Of a DNA stretch of 64,000 nt, positions 4,778 through 30,355 are shown piece after piece. Position 1 is the first letter of the stretch, and the number at the start of each line of letters is the position of its first letter. The DNA is from a virus (Duplodnaviria > Heunggongvirae > Uroviricota > Caudoviricetes): IMG/VR virus record IMGVR_UViG_2671180724_000008. One strand, written 5' to 3'. A model generated the notes under the pieces. It was not told where the DNA came from and did no database searches. It saw nothing but the letters and a program-made list of their open reading frames with translations. The position numbers and the translations under genes were made by a program.

Positions 4778-5959
4778 ATGAGCCTTTATGTTATATCAAC
4801 ATTTAGGTTGGTCACAATATTGCCTGTTAAAAGTGGAATTATCGTGAGCGAGCTGAAAGAGCTAATTACCGAATTAGATTTTGAACAATGGTTGGACACT
4901 GAAGGTATCGTTTATCGACGTGGAGGTGTGAGTGCTCGCGGTCGTGAAGTGAATATCAAGGAGTGTCCGGTATGCGGCAGCTCCAACTGGAAGGTATATT
5001 TCAATCTGACCAGTGGCGTCGGCAAATGCTTCGCTGGTGATCATCCCGAAGAGATTCAGTTCAATAAGCTGGTCTTCCTCAAGCACTACAGCGGTAAATC
5101 ACGACGACAGTTCGAGGAATATGTGCAGAACGCTCTTCTTTCCCAGGGGTGGGCACCAAAGAAAGAAGAGATAGTGCTTGCAAGCACAGTCGAGTTAGAG
5201 GGACCACTTGCACTCCCTCGTCATTACGAGCTTCCTATAGATGGCCGTCTTCCAGACTATCTGGTTGAACGAAACATATCACCTGAAATGGCAAAGTATT
5301 TTGACCTACGATACTGCGTCGAAGGCAAGCACGCTTATGTAGATCCGTATACAGATCAGGTAAAAGGACAGATATTCGATATGCGAGTACTGATACCGGT
5401 TTACGATCTGGATGGGGTAATGAAGACATTTCAGGGACGAGACATTACCGGTACAGCAGACCGCCGCTACCTCTTTCCTATGCAGCTTCCAGCTTCAGGT
5501 AAGTTTCTCTACAACGGCCATAATGCGGTCGGCAAACAGACTGTAGTTGTCTGTGAGGGGGCGTTCGATGTTATGGGGGTTAAACGAGCTATTTTTGATG
5601 AAGAAACATTACGTGATTACGTGGAACCGATAGGAACGTTCGGGATGCATCTATCTGGTAACACCACTCAGGATGCAGAAGATCAGTTAGGCGCGTTCCT
5701 GACGCTCAAGGCGCGTGGGTTACGTAATGTGATCATGATGTGGGATAGTGAAAAGCAAGCTATACGCAACACTATGGCCGCAGCCAGGCGACTGACCAGT
5801 ATCGGTCTTAATGTCAAAGTTGCGTGTTTGGGTGAGGAAGGACTCGACCCAGGCGGTGCAACGCCAGAACAAATTATCAAAGCCTATTATCGGGCAAAAC
5901 CGTATACCAAACAGTTGGAGTTGCAAAGCAAGGTTTTGGGCATTAAGGCTCTATCGTAA
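4778..5959 (+). CDS. DNA primase (zinc-ribbon plus TOPRIM, DnaG-like)
   Basis: CPVCGSS...GKC zinc motif and VVVCEGAFDVMG TOPRIM-like motif; start set at 4778 by the conserved AAAACACATG context. Confidence 0.75.
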   Translation: MSLYVISTFRLVTILPVKSGIIVSELKELITELDFEQWLDTEGIVYRRGGVSARGREVNIKECPVCGSSNWKVYFNLTSGVGKCFAGDHPEEIQFNKLVFLKHYSGKSRRQFEEYVQNALLSQGWAPKKEEIVLASTVELEGPLALPRHYELPIDGRLPDYLVERNISPEMAKYFDLRYCVEGKHAYVDPYTDQVKGQIFDMRVLIPVYDLDGVMKTFQGRDITGTADRRYLFPMQLPASGKFLYNGHNAVGKQTVVVCEGAFDVMGVKRAIFDEETLRDYVEPIGTFGMHLSGNTTQDAEDQLGAFLTLKARGLRNVIMMWDSEKQAIRNTMAAARRLTSIGLNVKVACLGEEGLDPGGATPEQIIKAYYRAKPYTKQLELQSKVLGIKALS

Positions 5960-5973
5960 CAAACGCCGTTAAA

Positions 5974-5994
5974 ATAAGTAGATGATTACTTATC
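5974..5994. promoter_or_regulatory. Copy of intergenic palindrome family ATAAGTA-N-TACTTATC
   Basis: One of about 15 dispersed copies, all intergenic. Confidence 0.4.
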
Positions 5995-6034
5995 TTTCTG
6001 TAAGAATACTTTCATCTGTTAGCTAGGAGTTGGT

Positions 6035-9494: not shown

Positions 9495-9516
9495 GATAAG
9501 TATTTACTTACTTATC
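9495..9516. promoter_or_regulatory. Copy of palindrome family GATAAGTAtttacttaCTTATC followed by TTTT
   Basis: Perfect 8-bp AT-rich arms. Confidence 0.4.
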
Positions 9517-24336: not shown

Positions 24337-25281
24337 GTGAATTATCTCTTCGTAGATGGCAATAGCCTGGGTTATTACCACCAACAATCTGACAAATTGC
24401 ACAACGGCGAAATGGAAGTACAGGCTGCTTTCGGCTTTGTTAAGAACGTCCGTCGTTATGCCTCCATCCTCCATGCCCGACCTATGATTCTTTGGGATGG
24501 ATTTAGTGACAAGCGTCGCGACTTTTACCCGGACTACAAAGCAAATCGCGACGACGATCCTGATATGAAAAAGATGAAGGAAGGCTTTGCTGTCCAGAAG
24601 CCATACATCCTCAAAATGATGACCGCGCTTGGTGTTAACCAAATCATTGCAAAAGATGCAGAAGCGGATGATCTGGCCGGGCTGCTGGTATCCCGCATGG
24701 CACCGCAGCCAACCGTTGAACACATCTATCTGTTAACAGGCGATAGCGACTGGCTTCAGTTAGTTCGCGAAAACGTAAGCTGGGTAAGCCTGCGTGAAGA
24801 CGCCAAAAACAAGCAGGTTAATTTTGAGCAATTTGCGGAGCTGACAGGATTCGCCACGCCTCGCGCATTTTTGGAAGCAAAAGCATTACAAGGCGATAAC
24901 TCGGACAACATTAGCGGTGTTGGTGGCATTGGTGCTGGCGGCGCGAAAGAGCTGCTGCATGAATGGGGAAGTGTCGCAACGATGGTACGCGGCATCAACG
25001 ACGGCTCAATCGTGGTTAATAAAGGGCGTCATAAGACCGCCTTCAACAAACTAGCGAAGAATGCCTTCAACGAGAAAACAGGCTGTCGAATGCTCGAAGC
25101 GTTCAAGAGAAACATCACGCTAATGAACCTGATTGAGACGAAGTTTCCGCCTACCGAAATCGAAACAATCAAAGGCAATCGTGACGTGAAAGCATTCGAG
25201 CAACTGTGCTACGAGCTGAATTTCCGTTCGTTCCTTGAAGACCTTGAAGTGTTTGTTCTTCCATTCGAAAGGTATTGCTAA
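24337..25281 (+). CDS. 5'-3' exonuclease / flap endonuclease (FEN family)
   Basis: H3TH-type motif GDNSDNISGVGGIG; start reassigned to in-frame GTG at 24337 after the terminator with GGAAGG RBS. Confidence 0.8.
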   Translation: MNYLFVDGNSLGYYHQQSDKLHNGEMEVQAAFGFVKNVRRYASILHARPMILWDGFSDKRRDFYPDYKANRDDDPDMKKMKEGFAVQKPYILKMMTALGVNQIIAKDAEADDLAGLLVSRMAPQPTVEHIYLLTGDSDWLQLVRENVSWVSLREDAKNKQVNFEQFAELTGFATPRAFLEAKALQGDNSDNISGVGGIGAGGAKELLHEWGSVATMVRGINDGSIVVNKGRHKTAFNKLAKNAFNEKTGCRMLEAFKRNITLMNLIETKFPPTEIETIKGNRDVKAFEQLCYELNFRSFLEDLEVFVLPFERYC

Positions 25282-25547
25282 TGCTTAAATCGATTATTAA
25301 TGGCGCTACCACCACCCCTACCCAACTGGCAAAAGAGATTGTCTTTTATCACGGTGAGTACGCTGTCATCGCACTGCCGTCAATTCTAGGCGCTGCCGGA
25401 ATGAAAGCGACAGATCGCGAGTTTGGATTAGTCAGCGAGCAGGTCGTAAAAATCCTCGCTCGTGTATCCAAACACCTTAACCACGATGCGATTGTATTCG
25501 ACGAATCCGCCGCTTTAAAACGAATCAACAAAACAAAAGGAGCCTGA
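25275..25547 (+). CDS. Hypothetical protein
   Basis: 90-aa ORF coupled to flanking genes. Confidence 0.4.
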   Translation: MLMLKSIINGATTTPTQLAKEIVFYHGEYAVIALPSILGAAGMKATDREFGLVSEQVVKILARVSKHLNHDAIVFDESAALKRINKTKGA

Positions 25548-25549
25548 TC

Positions 25550-26623
25550 ATGGCAAAAGGAAAATCCGCACTGGCACTTGCTCTGAAAAAGAAAATCGGT
25601 AGCAACGACGAAATTCAGAAAGTAACCCATTGGATTGACACAGGCTTTCCTCCGTTAAACAAAGCTATTTCAGGTCGTTACGATGGCGGTTTCCCATGTG
25701 GTCGTATCGTAGAAGTATTCGGGCCGCCAAGCGCGGGGAAAACCTTTTTGGCAACAGCAGCAATGATCTCCGCTCAGAAACAAGATGGTCTGGCGGTATT
25801 CCTCGATCATGAGAACAGTTTTGACGTTGGCCTGGCGGTAGCCAATGGCCTGAATGCAGATGAGGATGACGGCCAGTGGGTATACAAGCAGCCTGATACC
25901 TTCGAAGACTCTGTAGAGTTGATCGGCACAATACTTAAATTGGTACGTGATGAAGAGCTTATCCCTGAATCAGCACCTATCTGTATCGTGGCTGACTCAC
26001 TTGCGTCTATGGTTCCGAACTCCAAAGCCGAGAAGTTCGAAAAGATGGCTGAAGGCACTGCCAAAGACAAAGATCAGCTAAACATGAACGACAATACGGC
26101 GCTTGCTCGTGCGACGAGCGCGAACTTCCCCACTCTGGCTTTGTGGGCACGCAAATATAACGCCTGCATCATCTTCTTGAATCAGGTTCGCACAAAAATC
26201 GGTGTAATGTTTGGCGACCCTACGACGTCACCAGGCGGCGATTCACCGAAGTTTTACGCTTCTGTGCGCATCCGTCTCGGTGCATCGGTGATGAAGGATG
26301 GTAAAGAGAAGATCGGTCAGGACGTAGGCGCAGAGTGCATCAAAAACAAAGTTGCACCACCGTATGGCAAATGCACCTGGAAATTCTACTTCGATCCTAC
26401 TCGTGGCCTCGACGTTATCGAGTCGCTCGTCGAGTACATGCTGGAAGAAGGATACCTGCCAAAGAACGCCAGCGGGCGCGTAGAAATTGGTGACAAGAAA
26501 TACACCAAATCACAGATCGTCGAGATGTATCGGGAGAAGCCACTAGCTGAAATCATTGCGGCTTTACAGGCAATCGACGACCGGAGATCAAAAGACAATC
26601 CCACCGAGTCAGTAGAAGAGTAA
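25550..26623 (+). CDS. RecA/UvsX-family recombinase
   Basis: GRIVEVFGPPSAGKTFLA closely resembles the RecA Walker A region. Confidence 0.85.
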   Translation: MAKGKSALALALKKKIGSNDEIQKVTHWIDTGFPPLNKAISGRYDGGFPCGRIVEVFGPPSAGKTFLATAAMISAQKQDGLAVFLDHENSFDVGLAVANGLNADEDDGQWVYKQPDTFEDSVELIGTILKLVRDEELIPESAPICIVADSLASMVPNSKAEKFEKMAEGTAKDKDQLNMNDNTALARATSANFPTLALWARKYNACIIFLNQVRTKIGVMFGDPTTSPGGDSPKFYASVRIRLGASVMKDGKEKIGQDVGAECIKNKVAPPYGKCTWKFYFDPTRGLDVIESLVEYMLEEGYLPKNASGRVEIGDKKYTKSQIVEMYREKPLAEIIAALQAIDDRRSKDNPTESVEE

Positions 26624-26628
26624 ACACA

Positions 26629-26652
26629 AGGCGTCCACAGGACGCCTTTTTT
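26629..26652 (+). terminator. Rho-independent terminator (AGGCGTCC-acag-GACGCC then TTTTTT)
   Basis: Hairpin plus T-run. Confidence 0.75.
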
Positions 26653-26665
26653 ATCTCTTGAAAAT

Positions 26666-26686
26666 ATATAAGTACTTACTTATCAT
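26666..26686. promoter_or_regulatory. Copy of palindrome family ATAAGTACTTACTTATC
   Basis: Between terminator and next start. Confidence 0.4.
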
Positions 26687-26715
26687 TTTCACATAACAAC
26701 CACATAGGAAAACAC

Positions 26716-26916
26716 ATGATCAAAATCTATCTATTGGCAGTAGCCACAGGCCTTTCAGTGGCTCTCATCTACGGATTACTGGTTCCGTCGCTGATTTCTG
26801 CAAAGAGTGATTTGGCCGTCATGCTTGGAGTTCTCGTTGGTTTTGGTACTCCTGTAATCGGTCTTATTGCTGGTCGTAAGTTTATTAACTCATTAATCAA
26901 AGCAAAGGGGAAATAA
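26716..26916 (+). CDS. Small two-TM membrane protein (possible NfeD-like partner of the SPFH protein)
   Basis: 66 aa, two hydrophobic helices; stop 4 bp before SPFH gene. Confidence 0.5.
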   Translation: MIKIYLLAVATGLSVALIYGLLVPSLISAKSDLAVMLGVLVGFGTPVIGLIAGRKFINSLIKAKGK

Positions 26917-26919
26917 GTA

Positions 26920-27750
26920 ATGAAGAAACGTTTACCTGTAATTGCTCTGGCGGCTATTTGCACAATGGGTATTATTGGCTATGACCGCGTAGAACCTGGA
27001 TTTGTTGGCATCAAAGTAAACAAAGTAGGTGAAGATAAAGGGATTGGTGAAGTTGTTGGTGTTGGCCACCAATGGGTAGGCATTAACACTGAACTTTATG
27101 TATTCCCGACCTTCAAACAAATGAAGATCTACGACGAGCCGTTCACATTCCAGATGAGTGACGGTACTGCTATCGGTCACAAAATTGGCGTTACGTATCT
27201 GGTTAATCGTGACAAGGTAACGACAGTGTTCCAGACCTATCGCAAAGGCGTAGACGATATCACCGAATCAGATCTGCGTCAGAAAATTGCCGACTCTCTA
27301 AACCGTTTGGCCAGCCGTATGACCACTGACTCATTTATCGACGGTGGTAAGGCACAATTGCTGGACAACGCACTGAAAGATATTCAGAAAGAGATGTCTC
27401 CGGTTGGTATTGAGGTACTGAGCCTGTCATGGGTTGGAAAACCTGATTACCCAAAAACCGTCATTGAATCCATCAACGCCAAAGTAACGGCTAACCAGCG
27501 TACTCTGCAACGTCAGCAGGAAGTCGAACAACGTAAAGCTGAGGCGAATATGCTGCGTGAACAGGCTAATGGTGAAGCTGATGCTATCCGTGCTCGTGCG
27601 CAAGCAGAAGCAGACGCCATTCGTCTGCGCGGTGAAGCTCTGCGTCAAAACCCGAACGTTATGGAACTGGAAGCCATCAATAAATGGAATGGCCAGTTAC
27701 CGCAGTACATGACTCAAGGGGCTAACACTCCTTTCATTACCGTGAAATAA
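26920..27750 (+). CDS. SPFH/band-7 (prohibitin-like) membrane protein
   Basis: N-terminal TM helix, SPFH core and C-terminal Ala/Glu-rich coiled coil. Confidence 0.75.
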   Translation: MKKRLPVIALAAICTMGIIGYDRVEPGFVGIKVNKVGEDKGIGEVVGVGHQWVGINTELYVFPTFKQMKIYDEPFTFQMSDGTAIGHKIGVTYLVNRDKVTTVFQTYRKGVDDITESDLRQKIADSLNRLASRMTTDSFIDGGKAQLLDNALKDIQKEMSPVGIEVLSLSWVGKPDYPKTVIESINAKVTANQRTLQRQQEVEQRKAEANMLREQANGEADAIRARAQAEADAIRLRGEALRQNPNVMELEAINKWNGQLPQYMTQGANTPFITVK

Positions 27751-27767: not shown

Positions 27768-27791
27768 AGGCGTCCAGTTGGACGCCGTTTT
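27768..27791 (+). terminator. Rho-independent terminator (AGGCGTCC-agtt-GGACGCC then GTTTT)
   Basis: Hairpin plus T-run. Confidence 0.7.
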
Positions 27792-27845
27792 ATTCTCGTT
27801 ATTATCACATACAAGAAAACAATTTGTTAAAAGGTTAAGTTAATT

Positions 27846-28670
27846 ATGCCCAACCACATTACAAACGAAATCCGAGTCATAGGTGGCACAAATAAACAAC
27901 GCTTAGATTTCATACGTGCCATAACTAACAAAAAAGGTCTAATTGACTTTAATACCATTTGCAGACGTCCGAAAAGTATAGAAATGGAAGAAAACAATCA
28001 TATCAGGCGCATGGCCTCTGCAATGGCGGGCGAAACAGTTTACGACTACATGTTCGGTGAATTAAAGACTCCAGAACAGCTCGAATTAGCTATGCGTGAA
28101 TCAGGAATGACACGCAAGGAAATTCGCAAAATCAAAGAGCAGGCTCTTATGCGGCTTGAGAATTATCGTCGCTATGGCTATTACTCATGGTTTGACTGGT
28201 CGCGAGCTAATTGGGGAACAAAATGGAATGCCTACAACATCGAAATGCCCGTAAAACGTATCCCTACACGTATTAAGTACGGCCATAATTTCCGCCATAC
28301 ACACGTTCGAGCATATGCAAAACGAATCTATAAAAAACGTCTTGCAAGACATGCCGCAACTGGTGGTGAGTTGGTGATTCGCTTTGAAACAGCCTGGTCT
28401 ATGCCAAAACCAATTTATCAAGCGATGGCTAGAAAGTTCCCGCACCTTGAGTTTGTAATACGTTATGCAGACGAAGACTTCGGCAATAACTGCGGATTCA
28501 TTTTACTTCGCAACGGCAAATGGGAATATGACTACATTGCACCGGCGAATAACGAACAATCGTCAGAAGAAAAAATCAAATGGCGCAAGTTCGCCTTTGA
28601 GTTATGTTGTCCTGGTATCACTCCACAAGAATACGGTCTAAATGAAGAATACGAATACGCCGGATATTAA
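27846..28670 (+). CDS. Hypothetical protein
   Basis: 274-aa ORF preceded by the AGAAAACAATTTGTT motif. Confidence 0.5.
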   Translation: MPNHITNEIRVIGGTNKQRLDFIRAITNKKGLIDFNTICRRPKSIEMEENNHIRRMASAMAGETVYDYMFGELKTPEQLELAMRESGMTRKEIRKIKEQALMRLENYRRYGYYSWFDWSRANWGTKWNAYNIEMPVKRIPTRIKYGHNFRHTHVRAYAKRIYKKRLARHAATGGELVIRFETAWSMPKPIYQAMARKFPHLEFVIRYADEDFGNNCGFILLRNGKWEYDYIAPANNEQSSEEKIKWRKFAFELCCPGITPQEYGLNEEYEYAGY

Positions 28671-28716
28671 AAAAATTGTCATTTAGCTTTACGCATGAAG
28701 CATAGAGGTTAATAAG

Positions 28717-29457
28717 ATGAAAAGAAAAATTGAAGAACCAAAAACGACCCTTAATAAACATGGGGAAAAAATTCAAACACATCCAGCGTTCGGTCTTGTG
28801 AAAACAAGCCGTGTTAGCACAACTGGCATTCGCCTATTTGATTCAGAACTGGAACATAGAGACTATATTGAAATAGGCGTTTACGAGGCGGAACTGTCCT
28901 TAGACAATGAACGAACCCGGCCACAAAGAAGTAGCAATAGACGGCCTTTAGTTGAAATCAGACTTAGTCAGGCACAATGGGCTGCTATGGTTAGCAGTTT
29001 TGGTGTGGGCGAAGGTGTGCCATGCACTATTTCATATAAAACCATTGGCGACTCAATTAGAGTTCATGATATTGCCGAGCAAAAAAGTATTCGGCAAAAA
29101 TTCAACGATCAAATAAAGGCAGCTACGAATAGTGAGATTGATCGACTTAATCAGCAAGTTTCAGAGCTAGGTGAGCTTGTGAAAAAAGGAAGAGCTGGAA
29201 AACGTGACCTTGAAGAACTATATAGAAAACTTGCATCTGCTGTAGCTAACCTTCCTGAAAATCTGTGCTTTGCTACCGAATTAATGCAGGAGCAAATGGA
29301 TGAAATTGTCTCATCTGGAAAGGCGGAGATTGAGGCGTATGTTGCGGGCACGGTTATGCGTAAAGGGTTAGCAGCATTAGGCACAGAATCATGCATTAAC
29401 GATGATCCTACTGTCTCTATCACCAAAATGGAAAGCGGTAAAGAATTACTGCCATAA
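28717..29457 (+). CDS. Hypothetical protein
   Basis: 246-aa ORF. Confidence 0.5.
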   Translation: MKRKIEEPKTTLNKHGEKIQTHPAFGLVKTSRVSTTGIRLFDSELEHRDYIEIGVYEAELSLDNERTRPQRSSNRRPLVEIRLSQAQWAAMVSSFGVGEGVPCTISYKTIGDSIRVHDIAEQKSIRQKFNDQIKAATNSEIDRLNQQVSELGELVKKGRAGKRDLEELYRKLASAVANLPENLCFATELMQEQMDEIVSSGKAEIEAYVAGTVMRKGLAALGTESCINDDPTVSITKMESGKELLP

Positions 29458-29477
29458 ATGCATCTGAGGTACTGACA

Positions 29478-29867
29478 ATGCTTTTAATTCAACCTGGGTT
29501 CGGTTTAAAGATAAAAAAAGGGCATATGTTTGGTGAGCGAGATTCCAAACGAAAAATTCTGTCTATTCGATTACCATTTATCACCATTCATTGGTTAAAC
29601 AGAGAGTCAACCGATTATTGGTATAAATGCGCAAGAGCAGCATTTAACGACCCTGACTGGTTTGTAGAAAATCACCACGCGGTTCGTCAGGCAAAAAGAA
29701 AGGCTAATACGACATATATGAAGGCATATCAGGATGCCTGGGAAGAACATCGTGGCCGATACCAAAAAAACATTGAAAAACTTGAATCAGAAAATATGGA
29801 CCTAAGAAGAAAACTTGGTGAAGCACGTCGAGACATCGAAGCATATAAACGTCTTGTATCGGAGTGA
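29478..29867 (+). CDS. Hypothetical protein (basic, coiled-coil C-terminus)
   Basis: 129-aa ORF; start uncertain. Confidence 0.4.
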   Translation: MLLIQPGFGLKIKKGHMFGERDSKRKILSIRLPFITIHWLNRESTDYWYKCARAAFNDPDWFVENHHAVRQAKRKANTTYMKAYQDAWEEHRGRYQKNIEKLESENMDLRRKLGEARRDIEAYKRLVSE

Positions 29868-29929: not shown

Positions 29930-30355
29930 ATGGCAGCAATTAAGAAACTCTACGATGCCGCAAACGCGGCTCTGGATGTTATTGATGATGAAGTATCAAA
30001 AGGCTTTCCTGAACCTGATTGGGCGCATCAGCTACGAAACGCTATCGCCGAAATGAATCCACCAGATCCGACCACCGACGAGACAGACTGGCAGCGATTT
30101 ATCCGTATGTACGCTCAGGAAATAGGTCCAACGCCAACGGCAGAGCAAGCAATGCTGCTGAAATACTTCAAAGAGGCGGGAGAGGATTTACCAATTGATG
30201 ACTCAGCATATTGGTTCCACTGCGCATGGCGTAAGTATGACGTGATATTCACACAAGGCATGGGGAGCAAAGATATGGTTGTGTGGCATCTACTCCATAT
30301 AGACACAGCCGTTGACAGAGTTATTGAACAGTTTTTCCCTAAACAAGAAGATTGA
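29930..30355 (+). CDS. Hypothetical protein
   Basis: 141-aa ORF. Confidence 0.5.
   Translation: MAAIKKLYDAANAALDVIDDEVSKGFPEPDWAHQLRNAIAEMNPPDPTTDETDWQRFIRMYAQEIGPTPTAEQAMLLKYFKEAGEDLPIDDSAYWFHCAWRKYDVIFTQGMGSKDMVVWHLLHIDTAVDRVIEQFFPKQED

Follow-up and report, generated by a model that had tools for sequence, protein, structure and literature searches.

A two-gene operon of an SSU5-like phage-plasmid encoding a small two-helix membrane protein and a prohibitin-type SPFH protein

The subject of this analysis is a two-gene locus at positions 26716-27750 of a 64,000-nucleotide stretch of viral DNA (IMG/VR record IMGVR_UViG_2671180724_000008; the whole stretch is called the window below). The locus encodes a 66-aa membrane protein with two transmembrane (TM) helices, followed by a 276-aa SPFH protein. 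SPFH scaffolds such as prohibitin, stomatin, flotillin and HflK/C have been studied intensively; the bacterial prohibitins are still without a characterized member. A survey of prokaryotic prohibitins predicted a periplasmic orientation and a link to FtsH for them, identified no NfeD partner and knew of no studied member (PMC2636767). Hundreds of phage genomes carry annotated SPFH genes to which no purpose is assigned, and a 2026 paper on an N4-like phage calls their purpose "unclear" (PMC13239085). Our search of the literature on phage SPFH proteins, N4 gp20 and the pMT1 and pHCM2 homologues returned annotations and speculation only, and no functional study (PMC10269572, PMC13239085, PMC7150955). 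This bears out the original prediction, made from the sequence of the window, which had called the function unknown here. An SPFH (HflK/C-like) protein on a Pasteurella prophage island, which may be unrelated to the window family, appears in a virulence study (PMC9872710).

Several described systems resemble the locus. In Escherichia coli, HflK/HflC, together with FtsH, form an inner-membrane SPFH cage that faces the periplasm; these proteins are top structural matches to the model of the window protein. HflK/C is a hetero-oligomer of two TM-anchored paralogues, whereas the window has a single SPFH gene. Near hflKC lies the gene of YjeT (DUF2065), like the window partner a two-TM protein of about 65 aa beside SPFH genes, but it is found downstream of these genes rather than upstream and its homology to the window protein is undetectable. 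In the NfeD-SPFH operons (YbbJ-QmcA and YqiJ-YqiK of E. coli, YuaF-FloT of Bacillus subtilis), a membrane protein is co-transcribed with an SPFH scaffold, which it presumably binds. The NfeD-partnered QmcA cage faces the cytoplasm (PMC13086221, PMC2636767), opposite to the predicted side of the window SPFH domain. Among Staphylococcus phages, Kayviruses encode a small basic-tailed membrane protein, MbpV, beside the SPFH protein MbpS (PMC7150955). Unlike the window protein, MbpV has one TM helix and 102 aa, and the pair lies inside the lysis module of a phage of Gram-positive bacteria; the SPFH genes of Staphylococcus phages are distant tblastn matches to the window protein (~25% identity), and the small proteins may be unrelated.

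The window pair has homologues of the same order and spacing in coliphage N4 (gp19/gp20) and the N4-like Shigella virus Moo19 (gp30/gp31). N4 is a virulent podophage that carries the pair among its early and middle genes, where gp19 is annotated as a membrane protein and gp20 as a lipoprotein. Gp20 is 61% identical to the window SPFH protein over its full length (E = 7e-126), and gp19 (68 aa) shares 41% identity over 49 aa with the window small protein (E = 2e-8) and the same two-TM layout. Our analysis indicates that the two window genes probably encode a periplasm-side prohibitin-like scaffold and its dedicated two-TM membrane partner. The genes, with the open reading frame (ORF) lengths and the evidence for each, including the ratio of nonsynonymous to synonymous substitution rates (dN/dS), are as follows.

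26716-26916, + strand: gene for the small two-TM protein (ORF of 66 aa; PHROG 1130, E = 7.6e-26; dN/dS; N4 gp19 homologue)
26920-27750, + strand: gene for the prohibitin-type SPFH protein (ORF of 276 aa; Band_7, E = 2.3e-29; PHROG 200, E = 5.5e-102; N4 gp20 homologue)

The two proteins and their predicted topology

Residues 23-209 of the 276-aa protein cover the full Pfam Band_7 profile (PF01145) with E = 2.3e-29 and 103.1 bits against a cut-off of 23.6 bits, and the SPFH assignment made in the original prediction thus stands in a hidden Markov model (HMM) search. A family profile built from twelve diverse members was then run against PDB sequences; it ranked PHB2 (1.6e-13) and PHB1 (1.8e-12) ahead of QmcA (1.4e-7), erlin-2 (2.2e-7), HflK (3.7e-6) and HflC (1.3e-5). 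Judged by this profile, the protein is of the prohibitin type, closer to prohibitins than to QmcA or HflK/C. It probably belongs to the SPFH4 "p-prohibitins", a placement that follows the ranking of PDB matches. Exclusivity of SPFH3 and SPFH4 was reported by Hinderhofer et al. in 2009 (PMC2636767).

Prohibitins (SPFH4; PHB1/PHB2 in eukaryotes), the best sequence relatives among solved structures, share with the window protein the order of anchor, SPFH domain and long coiled coil. Their domain is predicted to face the periplasm (in mitochondria, it faces the intermembrane space), and the same side is predicted for the window protein. The identity is nevertheless only about 15-18%, and the window family differs in being mostly lipid-anchored rather than TM-anchored, in having its own C-terminal KW(N/D)GxLP motif and in having a two-TM partner that the 2009 survey does not mention (PMC2636767). 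K255, W256, G258 and P261 of this motif are invariant, and it is the most conserved sequence of the SPFH family.

The AlphaFold model (pLDDT 78) comprises an anchor helix (residues 4-17), a mixed beta/alpha region (20-176) and a single coiled-coil helix of about 65 residues (179-243), with the C-terminal 33 residues modelled at low confidence. It thus has the architecture of a cage former: N-terminal anchor, SPFH domain, long coiled-coil helix and C-terminal segment. In a Foldseek search, the top matches, over the full length, were all subunits of solved cages, namely HflC/K, erlin1/2 and PHB1/2, with E-values of about 1e-12 to 1e-13. Like HflK/C, prohibitin and erlin, the SPFH protein may therefore assemble through its long helix into a ring or cage that would fence off a patch of the inner membrane.

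To describe the N-termini, we used representatives of 35 SPFH clusters formed at 80% identity. A lipobox, L-(T/V)-G-C, is found in 27 of them, and most others have a plain hydrophobic N-terminal helix. The proteins of SSU5 and Cyrano, two relatives of the window element, begin with MKKGLLAVALAAICTMGLTGC-DRVEPG and carry an LTG-C lipobox; elsewhere the region reads LVGC-D (the Stx2 copy), LTGC-D (a P1 variant) or LTSC-Y (N4, whose gp20 keeps the lipobox cysteine lost in the window copy). The window copy begins with MKKRLPVIALAAICTMGIIGY-DRVEPG and reads IIG-Y, the lipobox Cys21 being replaced by Tyr (codon at 26980-26982). No match to the lipobox pattern [LVI][ASTVI][GAS]C was found in it, as the upstream "AAIC" is unfit with Ile at position -1. 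Since the cysteine is replaced, the PHROG/RefSeq label "lipoprotein" is, on this sequence, wrong for the window copy. Seven of its 15 amino-acid differences to Cyrano fall within the first 21 residues and add positive charge and hydrophobicity. Among 120 close homologues, the cysteine is kept in about 100 and replaced in 16, by aromatic residues only (Tyr in 14, Trp in 1, Phe in 1). The Cys-less form is the common one in the window's E. coli clade (P0001 on 50 contigs, P0003 on 175), and scattered replacements by Tyr, Trp or Phe are seen outside it. In the window SPFH protein, the lipid anchor has probably been swapped for an uncleaved signal-anchor helix.

The 66-aa protein has hydrophobic segments at residues 4-22 and 33-51, i.e., two TM helices, and ends in a basic tail of 13-15 residues. 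Across 30 members of the small family, the density of lysine and arginine is 0.20 at the N-terminus, 0.056 in the loop and 0.27 at the C-terminus. Under the positive-inside rule, we infer from this distribution that both ends are cytoplasmic (N-in, C-in) and that the loop of 9-12 residues is periplasmic. The loop is conserved (VPSLISAKSD in the window copy), and the sole conserved motif of the small family, [FY]G-x-x-VP-x-L-[IV]-S-[AS]-[KS]-[SD], runs from the end of TM1 through it.

From the lipobox or signal-anchor N-termini found across the family, and from a topologically consistent natural fusion, we infer that the SPFH domain lies on the periplasmic side, whether held by a lipoprotein or a signal anchor. 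The fusion, P0023 (347 aa, from enterobacterial assemblies; related locus L004 3784-4828), joins the small and SPFH proteins in frame, the C-terminal tail of the former leading directly into the signal sequence of the latter, and eight member sequences share it. Such a join is consistent only with a C-in hairpin and an exported SPFH domain. The fusion may be a Rosetta-stone hint that the two proteins associate physically, or else the product of a frameshift where the two genes overlap by 20 nt. In the proposed arrangement, the SPFH domain would be held on the periplasmic side of the inner membrane, by a lipid anchor in most relatives and by the uncleaved signal-anchor helix here; the two-helix hairpin would sit in the membrane as the partner of the cage and probably touch it through the conserved loop.

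The small ORF is, by several sequence criteria, a real gene under purifying selection: its length is constant at 66 aa and its dN/dS is 0.1-0.25 across the SSU5-like copies, it matches PHROG 1130, and homologues lie at the same position in unrelated phages. The protein could be aligned with partners from seven other phage lineages. Pfam contains no family for it (E <= 0.01), and nine members of the small family gave nothing consistent at E <= 1; solved structures gave chance-level matches only (E about 6). A whole-library profile search with the small protein retrieved only 27 cluster representatives at E <= 1e-3, one of which, the repeat protein P0156, is a false positive. Assignment of the small protein to YjeT/DUF2065 was rejected, with an hhalign probability of 1.2% for the family against E. 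coli YjeT and no DUF2065 match in Pfam.

The original prediction had likened the locus to the NfeD-SPFH operons of bacteria. Read at face value, this would make the small protein a minimal NfeD whose task is to activate or oligomerize a stomatin-like partner on the cytoplasmic side. The order of the genes, with a small membrane protein followed by SPFH, and their tight coupling do recall nfeD-SPFH operons (though the order in E. coli is qmcA, then ybbJ), and QmcA is a detectable, if weaker, relative of the SPFH protein (E = 1.4e-7). However, no NfeD domain (PF01957) was found by Pfam in nine family members, hhalign against E. coli YbbJ gave a probability of 1.5%, and the 13-15 residues that follow TM2 are too few for the OB-fold that defines NfeD. 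Nor is the partner a cytoplasm-facing SPFH protein of the stomatin or flotillin type: it is prohibitin-type, with an exported, lipoprotein-type N-terminus in its relatives that would place it in the periplasm, and the literature records no NfeD partner for SPFH4 (PMC2636767). NfeD homology of the small protein was rejected on the Pfam and hhalign results; as the domain and topology tests largely refute it, we regard a genuine NfeD-SPFH operon as highly improbable, and the earlier comparison survives as a loose analogy. In the arrangement of periplasmic scaffold and membrane partner, the hairpin might instead fill, for periplasm-facing SPFH proteins, the niche that NfeD fills for cytoplasm-facing ones, without being related to it.

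Operon layout and regulatory elements

The two genes are separated by 3 nt (GTA), with the stop codon of the first ending at 26916 and the ATG of the second at 26920. The tight spacing noted in the original prediction is therefore real, but the 4 bp given there is the stop-to-start distance and not the length of the gap. An AGGA lies 6 nt 5' of the ATG of the small gene, and AAAGGGGA (26904-26911), within the end of the small ORF, lies 9 nt 5' of the SPFH ATG, both in the position of a Shine-Dalgarno sequence. With the 3-nt gap and the second of these sites inside the preceding ORF, the layout fits translational coupling of the two genes. The small two-TM gene was thus correctly recognized as real and as closely coupled to the SPFH gene, whose own dN/dS is 0.02-0.2 among the SSU5-like copies. 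The following elements surround the pair.

26628-26648, + strand: upstream intrinsic terminator hairpin, AAGGCGTCC-ACA-GGACGCCTT, then TTTTTAT (terminator scan; fold -14.7 kcal/mol, z = -5.4)
26658-26686, + strand: predicted sigma-70-type promoter-like element, TTGAAA-17 nt-TATCAT (promoter scan, 10/12 matches)
26668-26683, no strand assigned: perfect copy of the inverted repeat ATAAGTA-NN-TACTTAT, which overlaps both the spacer and the -10 hexamer of the predicted promoter and may serve as an operator or as a shared promoter element
27769-27795 (hairpin to 27786), + strand: downstream intrinsic terminator hairpin, GGCGTCC-AGTT-GGACGCC with a T-rich tail (terminator scan; fold -14.3 kcal/mol, z = -5.2)

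The pattern GGCGTCC-N3-6-GGACGCC occurs in only two copies in the 64 kb window, which are the two terminators, with none expected (100 shuffles). Of the SSU5-like relatives examined, nearly all have both hairpins around the operon and every one has the downstream hairpin; the stems are constant while the loops vary. The matching terminators that the original prediction described around the pair are thereby confirmed. In Yersinia pestis pMT1 (L095; near locus position 5712 if L093/L094 are taken as a guide), the upstream stem carries a compensatory change, GGCGCCC...GGGCGCC; this double change supports selection on the upstream hairpin. By its sequence and position, the upstream hairpin is taken to close the RecA/UvsX-like gene that precedes the operon and to insulate the operon, and the downstream hairpin to end it. 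The promoter-like element is found past the upstream terminator, ahead of the small ORF. With two terminators and a predicted promoter between them, 26716-27750 is, as read from the sequence, a compact autonomous operon of promoter, small gene, SPFH gene and terminator, insulated from its neighbours on both sides.

Six SSU5-like elements share the block 26658-26687 with hardly any change, although their small ORF falls to 61% amino-acid identity. Within the window, the inverted repeat ATAAGTA-NN-TACTTAT has 29 matches with at most three mismatches, against 2.7 expected, and three perfect copies (17567, 26668 and 43612). The best copies, of about 16 bp each, are at 9496, 14912, 17567, 23150, 26668, 34212, 38896, 43612, 49108, 50664 and 54711, and the ORF map places the best-matching ones in inter-ORF gaps directly 5' of + strand genes. 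Among the genes so preceded are those for a single-stranded DNA-binding protein (SSB), ribonucleotide reductase and thymidylate synthase (named by comparison with Cyrano). The repeat looks like the operator set or a shared promoter element of a phage-plasmid regulon, and the pattern resembles that of P1, a phage-plasmid whose repressor acts on a dispersed operator set. Being common to the operon promoter and to replication genes, it suggests that the operon is switched together with replication and recombination genes, which fits the early or middle position of the pair in N4-like and PVP-SE1-like phages.

Distribution of the pair and possible functions

To assess how regularly the two genes occur together, the survey combined the 35 SPFH clusters with 173 fetched loci searched with an HMM of the small family. 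A member of the small family was found at most 30 nt from the SPFH start in 98 of the 173 loci and farther upstream in four more, two of which (Shigella, E. coli) are split by IS1. In these two, L096 (Shigella flexneri) and L097 (E. coli chromosome), an IS1-like insertion of about 770 bp lies between the small ORF and the SPFH gene (~5230-6000) and, in this chromosomal prophage copy, alters the C-terminus of the small protein. The fast divergence of the small family puts many of its members beyond the reach of sequence searches, and the hydropathy of the upstream ORF was used in their place. By this measure, a two-TM ORF of about 50-85 aa lies directly 5' of the SPFH gene in 24 of the 35 clusters. 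They include N4-like and PVP-SE1-like phages, phiE125 and Vibrio phages, lambdoid and Pseudomonas prophages, and also copies on the chromosomes of Caulobacter, of sphingomonads, of a cyanobacterium and of an acidobacterium. Homologous pairs comprise N4 gp19/gp20, Moo19 gp30/gp31, phiE125 gp44/gp43, the pair of Vibrio phage CKB-S1 and, with one extra small ORF in between, PVP-SE1 gp115/gp117.

A tblastn search with the SPFH protein detected relatives in 465 phage records. These comprise N4-like podophages, PVP-SE1/rV5-like myophages, Stx2a records with a lambdoid prophage and a P1 variant; further relatives occur in phiE125, Pseudomonas Bruynogheviruses, phiCbK-like phages, Bacillus and Staphylococcus myophages and Lak megaphages. 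The small ORF is present but unannotated in the PPompW prophage of a Stx2a record (L003 3804-3992; LC567820) and in the P1 variant MH445380 (L004 3784-4020), and in both the lambdoid prophage and the P1 variant it overlaps the SPFH start. No consistent functional gene neighbours were found, as the flanking genes differ in every lineage examined. The chromosomal copies are surrounded by housekeeping genes (lgt, proC, a histidine kinase gene, ubiD, fabF). Given the chromosomal pairs and the many phage pairs, the module appears to be a bacterial operon of old standing which phages acquired more than once.

The closest relatives with a known role, HflKC (acting with FtsH) and prohibitin (acting with the m-AAA protease), control which membrane proteins the membrane protease can reach and which are protected from it. 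A role modelled on them is the most likely of the functions considered, if by a small margin, and we hold it as a tentative proposal. On this model, the pair would regulate the access of membrane proteins to FtsH or shelter membrane proteins during phage development. Gated access of the membrane protease might then keep the inner membrane working for the phage in the replicative phase.

Several points weigh against this proposal or against parts of the structural description. The FtsH link is extrapolated from relatives of only 15-18% identity, and no published experiment on the function of any family member was found. The last 33 residues, modelled with low confidence, are the part that would close the cage, and their motif is not seen in HflK/C or prohibitin. 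Loss of the cysteine could, judging from the sequence, permit cleavage by signal peptidase I after IIG, so that the protein would be soluble in the periplasm. Several phages have a residue other than Asp next to the lipid-modified cysteine; under the sorting rule of E. coli, lipoproteins lacking Asp after the cysteine could go to the outer membrane. A lipid-anchored SPFH protein also lacks the TM helix that HflK/C add to their cage. Finally, the proposed contact between the two proteins rests on gene linkage and on one fusion, possibly a frameshift artefact.

The position of the pair in prophages brings in an alternative, namely superinfection exclusion or envelope protection, in which the hairpin and the periplasm-side protein would block the DNA entry of other phages or envelope damage. 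In the lambdoid PPompW prophage, the pair is flanked by the cI region on one side and xis/int on the other and shares the strand of cI, and in lambdoid and Pseudomonas prophages alike it lies downstream of a cI-like repressor gene on the same strand. By analogy, this place is typical of lysogen-expressed genes, and in PPompW and the Pseudomonas prophage it corresponds to that of rexAB in lambda. The Moo19 pair follows a gene annotated as "superinfection exclusion", and the SPFH gene of the Vi01-like phage PhiSH19 also neighbours such a gene (PMC3220722), but these neighbours are annotations only. A similar division of labour exists in T4 between Imm, a small membrane protein, and Sp, a periplasmic protein, without homology to the present pair. 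The insulated promoter-to-terminator unit also fits exclusion, and the PHROGs category of the small protein is "moron, auxiliary metabolic gene and host takeover". In Y. pestis pMT1, YPMT1.49c and YPMT1.49Ac were picked out in multi-omics work, which suggests expression from a resident plasmid (PMC3521224); YPMT1.49c is named as a homologue in the phiE125 record, and YPMT1.49Ac is presumably the small ORF.

Against exclusion, neither protein has homology to a known exclusion or defence protein. PADLOC-DB 2.0 gave no matches at E <= 0.01 for the small protein, the SPFH protein or the two downstream proteins tested. A known anti-phage defence system was accordingly discarded as a candidate, and the hint in the original prediction that such genes occur in defence loci found no support here. 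The promoter shares its repeat with replication genes, pointing to lytic-phase rather than lysogen expression, and the non-prophage copies among housekeeping genes in Caulobacter and Acidobacteriota argue for a general membrane function. We therefore consider exclusion unlikely, if worth keeping in view.

Another alternative is general membrane stabilization or lysis timing. The scaffold might preserve the inner membrane and the proton-motive force through a long infection of high yield, or restrain a holin-like small protein; in the latter case, the SPFH protein would regulate a small protein that acts as holin or antiholin. Many carriers of the family are large virulent phages (N4-like, PVP-SE1-like, phiCbK-like, Bacillus and Staphylococcus myoviruses, Lak megaphages), some of which have long latent periods. 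With two TM helices, both ends inside and a basic tail, the small protein is shaped like a class II holin, and in Kayviruses the holin-like MbpV and the SPFH protein MbpS lie within the lysis module (PMC7150955). Outside Kayviruses, however, the pair is not beside lysis genes in any locus examined, chromosomal bacterial copies would need no holin, and the Pfam search of the nine small-family members gave no consistent holin match. Phage Cyrano, 91% identical here, encodes holin, endolysin and Rz/Rz1 in a complete cassette at a distance of about 30 kb. In N4, over 60 mutants with rapid lysis were mapped to gp61, gp63, the gene for the virion RNA polymerase (vRNAP) and the terminal repeats, with gp19/gp20 unmentioned (bioRxiv 10.1101/2025.11.12.688109). 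The small protein as primary holin was rejected on account of the separate canonical cassette in Cyrano and the N4 mutants falling outside gp19/gp20, and membrane stabilization or lysis timing as the main role appears improbable.

The existence of these genes is already known, under annotations such as "SPFH/band 7", "lipoprotein", "stomatin-like", "serine protease" and "membrane protein". In the literature searched, we found no description of three features: that prohibitins of prokaryotes or phages are systematically coupled to a dedicated non-NfeD two-TM partner, that the phage and chromosomal pairs share an ancestry, and that the lipobox cysteine is lost recurrently. A broader and rather doubtful conjecture is that the two-TM family represents an unnoticed operon partner of prokaryotic prohibitins, and that phages of many lineages captured the module to build their own periplasm-side cage, taking over or competing with HflKC-type control of FtsH and membrane-protein turnover, or excluding rival phages. 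If this were true, the function of bacterial prohibitins could be studied conveniently through N4 gp19/gp20 in E. coli. A phage SPFH gene with a conserved two-helix partner that also occurs on chromosomes is a concrete and testable unit, and coliphage N4, SSU5-like phage-plasmids and E. coli offer accessible genetic systems. Should the module re-route FtsH-dependent proteostasis or block superinfection, it would represent a novel phage device for takeover or exclusion; should it merely stabilize the membrane, it would be ordinary accessory cargo.

Genomic setting

DNA identity and gene order shared with Escherichia phage CMS-2020a, phage Cyrano and Salmonella phage SSU5 assign the window to an SSU5-like phage-plasmid of E. 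coli. Over 1.25 kb around the operon, the identity is 96% to CMS-2020a, 91% to Cyrano and 77% to SSU5, and many E. coli and Shigella assemblies carry an SPFH protein identical to the window copy. As in these relatives, the genes follow the order gp32-like SSB, 5'-3' exonuclease, small ORF, RecA/UvsX-like recombinase and then the two-gene pair. Pfam and PHROG matches identify the upstream neighbours as recombination/replication genes (gp32-like SSB, FEN-type 5'-3' exonuclease, RecA/UvsX-like), and the genes 3' of the operon have no assigned function, in agreement with the earlier placement of the pair between recombination genes and unknown ones.

Directly past the operon terminator, at 27846-29867, the window carries three extra genes (DUF1281_C/Api92-like; PHROG 6452; PHROG 1511) that are missing in phage Cyrano. 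There, the terminator is directly followed by a 99% identical DUF7238 gene, located in the window at 29930-30355. On this comparison, the stretch 27846-29867 appears to be a variable insertion spot.

On the other side of the operon, the RecA-like gene of Cyrano (L001 3672-6011) is annotated as a single protein of 779 aa, in place of which the window (25275-26623) and SSU5 have a 90-aa ORF and a 357-aa recombinase. The extra ~330 aa of the Cyrano protein may be an intein or a homing-endonuclease insertion.

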